DNA of 64,000 nucleotides, from IMG/VR virus record IMGVR_UViG_3300045988_082835. One strand, written 5' to 3'. Positions within the stretch are counted from its first letter, which is position 1. Each line of letters starts with the position of its first letter. The stretch is from a virus. The notes beneath the pieces are model-generated. The model was not told the origin of the DNA. It ran no database searches and was given only the letters and a program-made list of their open reading frames with translations. The translations under genes and the position numbers were made by a program. This document shows, one piece after another, positions 61,482 through 64,000 of the stretch.

Positions 61482-62279
61482 ATGACAATTTTTGAACGAG
61501 TAAGAGAGCATTATGATGAAGCTCTTACCCATTTCACAGAAGACCAAGTTGTGGGAATCTTTCTTCAAGGTTCTCAAAACTATGGACTCGATACTCCGCA
61601 ATCGGATGTAGATACAAAGCTAATTGTAGTTCCTAGCTTTAAAGACATTGCTATGAACCGCAAGCCAGTTAGCACAACTCATATTCGAGCAAACGATGAA
61701 CATACTGACTGGAAGGATATTCGCCTCTACATTCAGACATTCCGCAAACAAAACTTAAACTTCCTCGAAATTCTTTACACAGACTTTGCTATTGTTAATC
61801 CCATCTATGAAAAACAGTGGAATCGTTTAATTCAAGCAAGAGAAAGGATTACTCATTTTAATCCTTATCGTTCTGTTCAAAGTATGAAGGGTATTGCGCT
61901 AGAAAAATATCACGCTATGGAGCATGAATACCCAAGTAAAGTTGAAGTTTTAAAGAAGTATGGTTACGATCCTAAACAACTCCATCATCTTGTTAGAGTA
62001 GAAGATTATCTTGGAAGATATATCGCAGGAGAAAGTTATGAGAGTTGTTTAAACCCAGGCCCATTCAAACAAGAGCTAATAGAAATTAAGATGGGCAAAT
62101 ATTCTCTCGCGGAAGCTAGGATTGTGGCAGATAAATCTAAGGCTCATGTGGAAGAAATGGCAGAGTATGCGTATTCTATCTATCCAAATAAAGAAGACGC
62201 GGAAGTCAATGCTCTTCTTGATGATGTGCAATATGAGATTATGAAATTAGCGGTTGAAAGGGAGTTGAATAAAAGATGA
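61482..62279 (+). CDS. nucleotidyltransferase-fold protein (Pol-beta superfamily minimal NTase)
   Basis: GS-x9-SDVD motif (IFLQGSQNYGLDTPQSDVDTKLIV). Confidence 0.55.
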   Translation: MTIFERVREHYDEALTHFTEDQVVGIFLQGSQNYGLDTPQSDVDTKLIVVPSFKDIAMNRKPVSTTHIRANDEHTDWKDIRLYIQTFRKQNLNFLEILYTDFAIVNPIYEKQWNRLIQARERITHFNPYRSVQSMKGIALEKYHAMEHEYPSKVEVLKKYGYDPKQLHHLVRVEDYLGRYIAGESYESCLNPGPFKQELIEIKMGKYSLAEARIVADKSKAHVEEMAEYAYSIYPNKEDAEVNALLDDVQYEIMKLAVERELNKR

Positions 62280-63145
62280 TTAAGAATTGGCTCGTGACTG
62301 GAGATACACATGGGCGAGTTATGGAGCGCCTTTCGCAGATAGATAGCGATAAGTATATTCCTGACGAAACGGCTATCATTATTCTCGGTGATGCCGGAAT
62401 CAATTACTTCTTGAATAAGACCGATGTAAAAAACAAGAAGTCTATTCAGGCAAGTGGCTACACTATTTATTGCGTCAGAGGAAACCATGAAATGCGGCCG
62501 GAGCGTCTTCCCGCAATTAACTGTGCCTTTGACTTTGAAGTTCAAGGTATAGTGCGCTATGAAGAGGATTATCCTCATATTAAATATCTTGTCAATAATC
62601 AAATCTACAAATTTGGTGATTACTCTGCTCTTGTTATTGAAGGAGCCTATTCAGTAGATAAATATTATCGCCTTGCTGGAACTGGATTAACTGGGGAAGA
62701 GGATTATGAATTAGTCGCCAAGAAAGCTGGATGGTTTAAGGACGAACAGTTATCCGCGGAAGAAATGAATTTTGCAACATTGGTAATCAAAAATAAGCAA
62801 GTTGATTTTGTTCTTAGCCATACTTGTCCGCTCTCTTGGCAACCAGTAGATCTTTTCTTATCTGCCGTAAACCAGTCAACAGTAGATAATACGATGGAAA
62901 AATGGTTAGACTCTTTAAAGAATGAGTTTCAGTGGAAAATTTGGTTGTTCGGCCATTTCCATAAAGATAGAATTGAACGACCCCACGTAGAGCAGTTTTT
63001 CCAAGATATTCAGCCTATTGATTCTATCTATAATAGATGGTATGGAGAAAAAACTATTCACAAAGAATGGTACTTAGAAAAGTCGCCTAATTACTATTTA
63101 AAGGGTGATACGCCTTTCGATGAAGATTTAAAGGAGGAGCTTTAA
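62276..63145 (+). CDS. calcineurin-like metallophosphoesterase
   Basis: GDTHG, GDAGIN, GNHE and GHFH motifs. Confidence 0.65.
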   Translation: MIKNWLVTGDTHGRVMERLSQIDSDKYIPDETAIIILGDAGINYFLNKTDVKNKKSIQASGYTIYCVRGNHEMRPERLPAINCAFDFEVQGIVRYEEDYPHIKYLVNNQIYKFGDYSALVIEGAYSVDKYYRLAGTGLTGEEDYELVAKKAGWFKDEQLSAEEMNFATLVIKNKQVDFVLSHTCPLSWQPVDLFLSAVNQSTVDNTMEKWLDSLKNEFQWKIWLFGHFHKDRIERPHVEQFFQDIQPIDSIYNRWYGEKTIHKEWYLEKSPNYYLKGDTPFDEDLKEEL

Positions 63146-63202
63146 GCCCTCCTTTATTTTTATATTTTATTATGGTATAATATAATAAAGGAAGTGATTA
63201 AA

Positions 63203-63929
63203 GTGAGCGTATACGCTATTAGTGATCTTCATGGTATGTTATGTCTTTATCAAGAGGTAAAGAAATTTTTTAAAACCAGAAGATAAAGTTTATTGCCCGG
63301 GCGATTGCGGCGATCGGGGACCTGATCCTTGGGAAACCATTAAAGCAGTTGCCGCAGATCCGCAATTTATCTACATCAAGGGTAATCACGAAGATATGCT
63401 TGTCAATGCAATGAGAGAATATGCGAAGTATGAATGTTTCGACAGAGATTATGCTTTGCTTTGTTTTAATGGAGGGAAAGACACCTTTGAAGGTTGGATA
63501 AGTGATGGTGCGAACCCTGATTGGTGTAATTATTTAAGTAAGTTACCTACTTATATGGAATACTGCAATAAAGACGATGTTAAAATAGCTCTTTGTCATG
63601 CAGGGCTTACAGCAGGTTCTAATCCAAATACAAGAGATTTAATCTGGGATAGAGAACATATTTGGGATACTTACTATGAAAATAATACTATCTGTGTTCA
63701 TGGACATACTCCTATCCCCGGTATGATTAGAGGCTATAGAGGAAGTCTAAAAAATTTCTTTGGAGCGAGAGAAGACTCTTATGTTGAGGGTGCTTTTTGG
63801 TACTGCAATGACCATAAGGTAAATATTGATTGTGGCAGTTTCTTTACTGGACAAACCGTTCTCTTAAATCTCGATACCTTTGACGAGCATATTTTTATGG
63901 TTGATATGGAGGATAAACAGTATGAATGA
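63203..63929 (+). CDS. second calcineurin-like metallophosphoesterase (PP-lambda/ApaH-like), apparent -1 frame change in the T6A4 run near 63258
   Basis: ISDLHG (frame 1) then GDCGDRG, GNHE, HGH (frame 3); ORF-track 63396..63929 is the distal part. Confidence 0.4.
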
Positions 63930-64000
63930 CCAACTTGGTACTCGTATGAAGGAGTTTTATGAACAGGTACCTAAAACTCGCCTCATGCGCAGAACTCCAG
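63922..64000 (+). CDS. Thg1-like protein (tRNA-His guanylyltransferase family), N-terminal fragment at window edge
   Basis: MNDQLGTRMKEFYEQ matches the G.RMK.YE N-terminal signature of Thg1/TLPs; ATG overlaps upstream stop. Confidence 0.4.
   Translation, partial: MNDQLGTRMKEFYEQVPKTRLMRRTP

Follow-up and report, generated by a model that had tools for sequence, protein, structure and literature searches.

Introduction

In bacteriophage T4, PseT (Pnkp) and Rnl1 repair tRNA-Lys that has been cleaved by PrrC. In the bacterial Pnkp of the Pnkp/Hen1 system, as in Clostridium thermocellum, kinase, metallophosphoesterase and ligase are combined in one polypeptide, and the phosphatase is of the lambda-phosphatase type. 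To our knowledge, phage RNA-repair kits are mostly predictions from genomes; tests have so far covered only the T4 kinase–ligase pair and, very recently, two bacterial RlaP enzymes. Here we analyse a stretch of 64,000 nucleotides of viral DNA (IMG/VR record IMGVR_UViG_3300045988_082835; 'the window' below), in which positions 61482-64000 encode a nucleotidyltransferase, two metallophosphoesterases (MPEs) and the beginning of a Thg1-like protein. We consider it likely, mainly from family memberships and the comparison of related loci, that these four genes form part of a phage island, in two transcription units, that repairs the ends of RNA, most likely tRNA. A preliminary description of the region had favoured RNA repair, and this reading is now supported by membership of the RlaP and Thg1 families, by catalytic residues, by neighbouring genes for a kinase, a third phosphoesterase (MPE_C) and a cyclic-phosphate processing receiver (cREC), and by an RNA ligase in relatives.

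Comparative genomics has outlined phage RNA-repair arsenals made up of tRNAs, ATP-dependent RNA ligase, polynucleotide kinase, phosphoesterases, RlaP, sporadic Thg1, TROVE, cRec and NAD salvage (Iyer et al, 2021; PMC7824862), and a neighbourhood of Thg1, polynucleotide kinase and RNA ligase has been on record since 2010 (PMC2904730). RlaP enzymes extend RNA 3'-OH ends by one or two nucleoside monophosphates, prefer mimics of nicked tRNA, do not use DNA, and enable over-trimmed tRNA to be aminoacylated again; the family includes T4 NrdC.11 (PMC12776372). The primary activity of the Bacillus thuringiensis Thg1-like protein (BtTLP) is the templated repair of 5'-truncated tRNAs (PMC3701042, PMC3061083). 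Our literature search turned up no study of a phage Thg1-like enzyme, nor of the phosphoesterase family that partners RlaP.

The locus described here shares with those arsenals (PMC7824862) both the parts list and the logic of healing ends, restoring nucleotides and sealing after tRNA cleavage. It differs in that it belongs to a TAG-recoded gut phage of ~141 kb, not a jumbo phage, and in having three calcineurin-like phosphoesterases, whereas end-healing in the described arsenals is usually assigned to HAD or 2H enzymes, with calcineurin-like ones in the minority. It also differs in that a major vault protein (MVP) gene lies in the island, and in that an RNA ligase was not found in the 74.5 kb of this strain that were read. 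Kits with these parts have already been predicted by comparative genomics, and another would not surprise a specialist. Besides the number of phosphoesterases, the vault protein and the recoded gut-phage genome, what is distinctive here is the tight pairing of RlaP with a phosphoesterase whose nearest folds are Dbr1 and CWF19, and the occurrence of ligase-minus and frameshift variants.

Results and discussion

Organisation of the locus

The source is an uncultivated human-gut phage with a TAG-recoded genome of ~141 kb, abundant in human-gut metagenomes. The four consecutive genes of the preliminary description were all confirmed as open reading frames (ORFs), at unchanged coordinates:

61482-62279, + strand: ORF1, 265 amino acids, Pol-beta nucleotidyltransferase of the RlaP/NrdC.11 family
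62276-63145, + strand: ORF2 (MPE_A), 289 amino acids, calcineurin-like metallophosphoesterase, Pfam Metallophos PF00149
63129-63186, + strand: intergenic hairpin and promoter-like site (fold energy, promoter scan), also the junction of a cassette deletion
63203-63929, + strand: ORF3 (MPE_B), lambda-phosphatase/NinI-like metallophosphoesterase, frameshifted here
63922-64000, + strand: ORF4 (Thg1-like), the first 26 codons of a 281-amino-acid gene that runs off the end of the window

The start of ORF2 overlaps the stop of ORF1 (ATGA), and the ATG of ORF4 at 63922 (MNDQLGTRMKEFYEQVPKTRLMRRTP) overlaps the stop of ORF3. Between the two pairs, a terminator-like hairpin with a U-run (~63129-63160; -15.9 kcal/mol, z -4.3) is followed directly by a TTTATA-16-TATAAT site at 63159-63186 found in the promoter scan. 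On the basis of this hairpin and TATAAT-like site, ORF1–ORF2 and ORF3–ORF4 are separate transcription units.

Since public metagenome contigs of ~120-290 kb contain the identical ORF2 protein in more than 1000 blocks, and since ORF1 and ORF2 each have thousands of homologues, these genes are real. Three of the four loci that were fetched (L093, L094 and L096) are 100.0% identical to window positions 53396-64000 over 10,605 nt. Two of them, L093 and L094, run past the end of the window, giving an extension of ~10 kb and, with it, the complete ORF4, which the preliminary description had proposed to recover. A megablast search with window positions 60400-64000 found no match among 50,697 GenBank phages.

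ORF1 is a two-domain nucleotidyltransferase of the RlaP/NrdC.11 family

ORF1 carries the GS..SDVD motif pointed out in the preliminary description, as G30-S31 and S41-D42-V43-D44. G30, D42 and D44 do not vary across 78 homologues, and conservation of S31 and D79 reaches at least 90%; the Pol-beta nucleotidyltransferase motif G[GS]...DxD and a third carboxylate are both present. Against the RlaP model PF10127, ORF1 itself passes marginally (24.8 bits; gathering threshold 23). The same model is matched by 38 of the 78 homologues (35-58% identity; best E 2.5e-9), the sole other family found among them being the generic NTP_transf_2, and ORF1 matches phrog_388 with E 5e-24. Profile comparison with hhalign aligned the ORF1 family with the RlaP-annotated 'RNA repair pathway DNA polymerase beta' of Listeria phage LIS04, over both domains (99.1%, E 1.5e-18, 192 columns), and with NrdC.11 of Aeromonas phage 25 (96%, E 4.9e-9, 57 columns). 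Additionally, tblastn finds phage genes annotated as nrdC.11 and RlaP. By sequence, then, ORF1 belongs to the RlaP/NrdC.11 family, and by analogy with characterised members it is predicted to lengthen RNA 3'-OH ends by one or two nucleotides.

The enzyme had been called 'minimal', which did not hold: the AlphaFold2 model (pLDDT 97.6) consists of an alpha/beta N-terminal domain and a helical C-terminal domain. This layout fits the written description of the PfRlaP crystal structure, an N-terminal nucleotidyltransferase domain followed by a helical C-terminal domain (PMC12776372), as far as a comparison of descriptions goes.

A search of the PDB with ORF1, as single sequence and as profile, gave nothing usable. 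The nearest solved folds of the model are ANT(4'), ANT(3'')(9), AAD(9) and LinB, a likeness at the superfamily level only. They are the one ground for regarding ORF1 as a resistance gene encoding an aminoglycoside or lincosamide nucleotidyltransferase, a reading we find scarcely credible. No antibiotic nucleotidyltransferase family was found for ORF1 in Pfam even at E <=1, nor among the two families matched by its 78 homologues, and neither sequence nor close structure makes it a member of the ANT, KNTase or Lnu groups. The homology to NrdC.11 and RlaP is significant, and the gene lies in an island of RNA enzymes of a lytic phage. A grouping with antibiotic enzymes, which had been named as a check on the RNA-repair reading, was thus not what the family searches returned.

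ORF4 is a repair-type Thg1-like protein next to a kinase

The complete ORF4 product of 281 amino acids was obtained from L093 and L094, and that of the relative L006 is identical to the L093 protein. It matches the Thg1 model PF04446 with 106 bits (plus a weak Thg1C match), phrog_4717 ('tRNA-His guanylyltransferase') with E 4.6e-87 and BtTLP (PDB 4kgk), its best solved relative, with E 1.4e-57, so that the Thg1 signature first noticed at its N-terminus extends to the full gene. The match is far weaker to an archaeal Thg1-like protein (1e-13) and to yeast, Candida and human Thg1 (~1e-7 to 1e-9). The 26 residues encoded inside the window gave no Pfam match by themselves.

The residues of BtTLP that are essential, E12, R28, D30, D75 and E76, among which the three carboxylates correspond to human D29, D76 and E77 (PMC3701042), align with E14, R30, D32, D77 and E78 of the phage protein. 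All three catalytic carboxylates (D32, D77, E78), whose presence the preliminary description had left to be checked, are there; like R30 they lie past position 64000, and only E14 falls inside the window. The phage protein therefore shares its catalytic carboxylates and nucleotide-binding residues with BtTLP, which is not itself phage-encoded. It has an insertion of ~35 residues (residues 120-158) between the two halves that align to 4kgk. Judged by these alignments, ORF4 is a 3'-5' polymerase of the bacterial, repair-type Thg1-like class and not of the eukaryotic Thg1 subgroup that adds G-1. Homologues occur in 164 GenBank phage records at <60% identity, usually annotated as tRNA-His guanylyltransferase, and some have prohibitin or an RtcB ligase nearby.

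The extension places two further enzymes of interest on the 3' side of ORF4:

77 nt downstream of the Thg1-like gene in L093: P-loop kinase, 172 amino acids, AAA_33/KTI12
directly after the kinase: MPE_C, a metallophosphoesterase of 184 amino acids, phrog_547 E 7e-44

They are followed in L093 by genes for a PIN-PhoH protein, lysis, RNase H and gyrase B. The kinase matches AAA_33 (E 2.3e-16) and phrog_505 'polynucleotide kinase' (E 5.7e-20), and its PDB matches include tRNA-dependent kinases, the kinase domain of C. thermocellum Pnkp and T4 Pnk. A polynucleotide-kinase-like P-loop kinase adjoining the Thg1-like gene is the neighbourhood of the bacterial type (PMC2904730).

The order of kinase and then metallophosphoesterase, and the match of the kinase to the Pnkp kinase domain, make the kinase–MPE_C pair resemble a split version of the bacterial Pnkp-type kinase-phosphatase. 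Unlike in bacterial Pnkp, the phage genes are separate, and the kinase scores 31.5 bits against the Pnkp model TIGR04075, for which the cutoff is 750; none of the MPEs matches that model, and no Hen1 methyltransferase was seen. With T4 the locus has in common a kinase and phosphatase, a ligase (here in relatives), an enzyme of the RlaP family (NrdC.11; PMC12776372) and a presumed role in countering anticodon nucleases. In T4, however, the kinase is fused to a HAD-domain phosphatase, whereas here the kinase stands alone and precedes a metallophosphoesterase, and T4 is not known to have a Thg1-like enzyme as this phage does.

The repair genes follow a large set of tRNA genes:

37581..55885, + strand: tRNA island, 29 tRNA genes (ARAGORN; Rfam), upstream of the MVP and DUF2828 genes
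54919-54993: suppressor tRNA(CTA), with U1xU72 and G73

The position of the repair island directly downstream of an island that includes tRNA-His, together with the addition of G-1 by eukaryotic Thg1 enzymes (PMC3061083), would fit a housekeeping role in maturing the phage's own tRNAs: the Thg1-like enzyme would add G-1 to tRNA-His, and the trimming and finishing of 3' ends on the ~30 tRNA transcripts would fall to RlaP and the phosphoesterases. The tRNAs themselves argue otherwise. The phage tRNA-His encodes G-1 opposite C73, the bacterial arrangement, and is the only one with G at -1. The 3' CCA is encoded in all 29 tRNAs found by ARAGORN, and their acceptor stems are regular except for C1xA72 in an initiator-like tRNA-Met, where it is expected, and U1xU72 in the suppressor. 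Since G-1 and C73 are encoded in tRNA-His, CCA is encoded throughout and the stems are regular, a maturation role is less likely. In addition, the Thg1-like protein is far nearer to the repair-type BtTLP than to G-1-adding Thg1, and an RNA ligase and a kinase would be superfluous for ordinary bacterial tRNA maturation. We therefore regard maturation as unlikely. Two narrower variants were considered and ruled out: the correction of mismatched phage acceptor stems by the Thg1-like enzyme, since the stems are regular, and G-1 addition as its main role, since G-1 and C73 are encoded.

MPE_A is an intact phosphoesterase with a Dbr1/CWF19-like fold

The preliminary description had counted two calcineurin-like phosphoesterases. 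Both genes indeed encode Metallophos proteins, but only MPE_A is intact; ORF3 is interrupted by a frameshift in a run of six Ts. Each was examined for the calcineurin-like motif set DxH, GD, GNH[ED], H and GHxH in a single intact polypeptide. MPE_A matches PF00149 with 38.2 bits (E 2.6e-9) and has all five metal-binding motifs (D10-x-H12, G38-D39, G69-N70-H71, H182 and H227-x-H229), the residues of which are invariant in alignments of 27 and 51 sequences. It is the conserved downstream partner of RlaP, and its family has more than 7000 members without a solved relative. Several JGI records label members of the family (P0275, P0279 and others) '3-oxoacid CoA-transferase subunit A', a name at odds with the Metallophos domain and apparently a misannotation that has spread.

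The nearest solved folds of MPE_A are Dbr1 and CWF19, not lambda phosphatase, and MPE_A is thus not of the lambda-phosphatase type to which the Pnkp phosphatase belongs. MPE_B compared with the Pnkp phosphatase 4j6o gave a non-significant E of 0.27. The earlier suggestion of a Pnkp-like phosphatase consequently found no support in either protein.

Mre11 and SbcD also appear among the folds resembling MPE_A, ranking below Dbr1, CWF19, purple acid phosphatase and MPPED2. This low rank speaks against the idea that the phosphoesterases are Mre11/SbcD-type DNA-end nucleases which, with a DNA-acting nucleotidyltransferase, serve phage replication or recombination. An ATPase partner of the SbcC/Rad50 type is absent from the Pfam lists of the surrounding loci, the consistent neighbours are RNA enzymes, and RlaP does not use DNA substrates (PMC12776372). 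We judge a role at DNA ends to be very improbable.

MPE_B is disrupted by a recurrent frameshift

In the window ORF3 starts with GTG at 63203 and meets a TAA at 63284-63286, the remainder of the gene lying in the +1 frame up to 63929. The run at 63266-63271 has six Ts, compared with five in five relatives, and this one extra T breaks MPE_B. Removing it yields an intact lambda-phosphatase/NinI-like enzyme of 241 amino acids, as found in the relative L006; the repaired protein matches PF00149 with E 1.5e-9, and the intact L006 protein matches phrog_246 (E 4.3e-33) and PDB 1g5b (E 3.2e-6). All the metal-binding motifs are still encoded, but motif I (SDLHG) is cut off from the others by the +1 frameshift, so that the window lacks the five motifs in a single polypeptide, whereas the relatives' copy is intact. 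In this genome MPE_B is a pseudogene.

The frameshift allele was traced, through its truncated ORF3 product of 177 amino acids, to 13 contigs from independent assemblies, including L095, which retains a gene cassette that the window has lost. Because it recurs in 13 independent contigs, among them one with a different cassette context, it is a real allele and not a read error; together with the 100%-identical loci, these contigs indicate that the arrangement of the window, frameshift included, is real and recurrent. Programmed frameshifting was also considered, since a +1 slip of tRNA-Phe on the six Ts would restore wild-type MPE_B. It was set aside because the five relatives have five Ts, which makes a frameshift mutation the simplest reading.

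RlaP and MPE_A are linked to RNA-end enzymes in diverged phages

We examined the surroundings of MPE_A in 80 IMG/VR viral contigs with an MPE_A homologue of 44-56% identity, plus one identical copy, counting neighbours within 8 kb on the same strand:

RlaP: 55 of 80 loci
RNA ligase: 41 of 80 loci
cREC: 40 of 80 loci
DUF2828/DUF7788 protein: 34 of 80 loci
MPE_B: 25 of 80 loci
MVP: 24 of 80 loci
kinase: 24 of 80 loci
Thg1: 22 of 80 loci

Of the 67 loci with enough upstream sequence, 37 have the end of RlaP no more than 400 nt ahead of MPE_A, and the kinase and MPE_C genes directly adjoin each other in 14 viral loci. Even where RlaP is only 58%, 45% or 41% identical to ORF1, a metallophosphoesterase still adjoins it, in the first two cases with cREC upstream as well. 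That MPE_A stands near RlaP in most of these 80 diverged contigs, and often with ligase, cREC, kinase, Thg1, DUF2828 protein or MVP, supports the RNA-repair reading. A similar setting is known from the RtcB-RlaP-RtcA operons of Pseudomonas (PMC12776372), in which RlaP likewise lies beside an enzyme for RNA ends that carry a 3'-phosphate or cyclic phosphate, with an RNA ligase close by. There, the partner is the cyclase RtcA and the ligase is RtcB, whereas here the phosphate would be removed by the partner, a metallophosphoesterase, and the ligase of the relatives is of the 5'-phosphate, ATP-dependent type.

The same linkage bears on a proposal that the module interferes with signalling: the phosphoesterases and cREC would sponge or degrade cyclic oligonucleotides, nucleotides of the cyclic ADP-ribose (cADPR) type or 2'-5'-linked ones, and the nucleotidyltransferase would make decoys. 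Calcineurin-like enzymes do include cyclic-nucleotide phosphodiesterases, the top folds of MPE_A include the 2'-5' phosphodiesterase Dbr1, and the ORF1 model also resembles HalB, an oligodeoxyadenylate synthase. Moreover, processing of cyclic phosphates or cADPR has been proposed for cRec, and degradation of signals for the T5 A1-type calcineurin-like enzymes (PMC7824862); NAD-salvage genes occur in the island of the relatives, and a poly(ADP-ribose) glycohydrolase gene elsewhere in the window. The proposal leaves the tight RlaP–MPE_A pairing unaccounted for, and the co-occurring RNA ligase, polynucleotide-kinase-like kinase and Thg1 all act on polynucleotide ends. RlaP works on RNA 3' ends in vitro (PMC12776372), and neither PADLOC defence-system models nor signalling models gave a meaningful match. 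We consider interference with signalling quite improbable.

The window lacks a cassette that carries an RNA ligase

MPE_A and MPE_B are separated in close relatives by 0.7-8.4 kb, a block that contains small ORFs, an RNA ligase gene and a variable NAD-salvage set. The ligase, of 424 amino acids, is ATP-dependent (PF09414; phrog_968 E 2e-50); a ligase gene lies in the neighbourhood of RlaP in L001-L005 and L008. The relatives' ligase is nearer to the DRB0094 type than to T4 Rnl1, its only NCBIfam match being TIGR02306 at 47.6 bits, under the model cutoff. The stop of MPE_A and the start of MPE_B lie only 57 nt apart in the window, and positions 63137-63195 match both flanks of the relatives' block, the junction lying in similar terminator/promoter sequence that recurs at cassette borders. 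An RNA ligase was not detectable in the 64-kb window and its 10-kb extension (74.5 kb of the ~141-kb genome). An exact-match search for the deletion junction in IMG/VR and JGI metagenomes found none; the variant was confirmed through the truncated MPE_B product.

The MPE_A–MPE_B interval (window 63137-63195; L001 10861-18415) is a hot-spot for cassettes. Small ORFs, the RNA ligase, a 287-amino-acid gene, NAD-salvage genes (nicotinamidase, phosphoribosyltransferase, YqeY, NAPRTase and NAD synthase) and MPE_B itself are present or absent depending on the strain. Strains that differ naturally in whether they carry the ligase and NAD cassette, and in whether MPE_B is intact or frameshifted, offer a ready comparison of the host defences that each module may counter.

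A possible repair pathway

From the structure and family of each gene, the active-site residues and the conserved linkage described above, we infer substrates, an order of steps and a role in counter-defence, drawing on the biochemistry of the families (PMC12776372, PMC3061083, PMC3701042) and on comparative genomics (PMC2904730, PMC7824862). The first unit (cREC, a small membrane ORF, RlaP and MPE_A) would deal with damaged 3' ends: MPE_A, possibly with cREC, would clear the 2',3'-cyclic phosphate or 3'-phosphate left by a metal-independent ribonuclease, and RlaP would then replace lost 3' nucleotides. The second unit (MPE_B, Thg1-like, P-loop kinase and MPE_C) would deal with 5' ends. Here the kinase would phosphorylate a 5'-OH, and the Thg1-like enzyme would activate the 5'-phosphate with ATP or GTP and rebuild missing 5' nucleotides in the 3'-5' direction, with the opposite strand of the acceptor stem as template. 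MPE_C, and MPE_B where intact, may add further phosphatase activity. In most relatives, where the ligase and NAD-salvage cassette lies between the two units, the ATP-dependent RNA ligase would seal internal breaks and so complete a pathway of healing, restoring and sealing. With the cassette deleted and MPE_B frameshifted, the enzymes that remain in this strain would restore termini only, and a host ligase would be needed to seal internal breaks. The likely purpose would be to keep host and phage tRNAs usable under attack by host abortive-infection nucleases.

Several observations weigh against an island for RNA repair. The score of ORF1 for the Pfam RlaP family barely exceeds the cutoff. A PDB search with MPE_A, as single sequence and as profile, found no informative sequence relative, and its assignment as a 2',3'-cyclic phosphodiesterase or 3'-phosphatase is a guess, since its fold neighbours cover many activities. 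The exact order MPE_B–Thg1–kinase is restricted to this lineage. Finally, since no RNA ligase was found in the 74.5 kb of this strain that were read and its MPE_B is broken, the island may be decaying or may serve a narrower role.

One form of such a role would be a self-sufficient, ligase-independent system that restores a damaged tRNA acceptor end on both of its strands, with RlaP and the Dbr1/CWF19-like MPE_A on the 3' side and the kinase, the Thg1-like enzyme and MPE_C on the 5' side. The defence nucleases countered by the genes of the ligase-less strain would then be those that trim the termini of tRNAs, not those that cut anticodon loops. We mention this as a speculative and rather doubtful specialisation.

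Genes upstream of the repair genes

The genes that precede ORF1 in the window include the following:

56015-57538, + strand: DUF2828/DUF7788 protein (Pfam)
57919-60342, + strand: MVP homologue, 807 amino acids, MVP shoulder E 8.8e-16
60738..61064, + strand: cREC, PF20274 E 5.3e-18; relatives start at ATG 60744 (106 amino acids)
61061..61477, + strand: ORF of 138 amino acids between the cREC and RlaP genes, hydrophobic over a stretch at the N-terminus; called as a gene in L093

The cREC gene lies two genes upstream of ORF1 and is also found upstream of RlaP in the diverged loci L008 and L009. The 138-amino-acid ORF has no Pfam or PHROG match and is conserved only in close relatives (7 of 80 loci). 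Ahead of cREC, the DUF2828/DUF7788 and MVP genes stand side by side immediately upstream of the repair genes. A PDB search with the DUF2828 protein, a possible TROVE-like protein, gave nothing usable. For this pair, a homologue was found in only 3 of 50,697 GenBank phage records, all of them huge phages, and in one relative the MVP slot is occupied by DUF7192 and a MoxR-type AAA_5 ATPase. A 2023 preprint on gut-phage MVPs makes no mention of RNA repair or tRNA (10.1101/2023.11.10.566534). The linkage of an MVP and a DUF2828/vWA-like protein to RNA-end enzymes may bear on the function of vault-like particles.

Further elements lie within the tRNA island:

44377-44707, + strand: tmRNA match, Rfam RF00023, 71.6 bits (gathering 47), not reported by ARAGORN
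47254-47849, + strand: full-length ROOL RNA, Rfam RF03087, 350 bits (gathering 99)
48116-48235, + strand: a 30th tRNA-like element, Rfam tRNA, 50.9 bits, missed by ARAGORN
49777-50898, + strand: AAA/nSTAND3-like ATPase, 373 amino acids, between tRNA genes

In the 30th tRNA-like element the anticodon arm is longer by ~47 nucleotides and the tail is CCG in place of the encoded CCA; the element could be an intron-containing or a degenerate tRNA.

The suppressor tRNA(CTA) of the island accords with the use of TAG as a sense codon, most likely for Gln, in this phage. Long ORFs need TAG readthrough, as in 6862-8607 with 14 in-frame TAGs and in the regions 3589-12078, 35443-36456 and 52138-53475. In three relatives (L001/L003/L004, 12269-13543) the RNA ligase gene contains one TAG each, at a site that differs between the three and is CAG in the other strains. 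The four genes of 61482-64000 contain no in-frame TAG. The distant relative phAss-1 has been filed under a 'Caudoviricetes code 15 clade' (PMC10607447).

The glycohydrolase gene referred to above lies farther upstream in the window:

12637-13401, + strand: poly(ADP-ribose) glycohydrolase, microbial type, PF10021 E 8.3e-27

Taken with the relatives' NAD-salvage cassette, it points to conflict functions centred on NAD and ADP-ribose.

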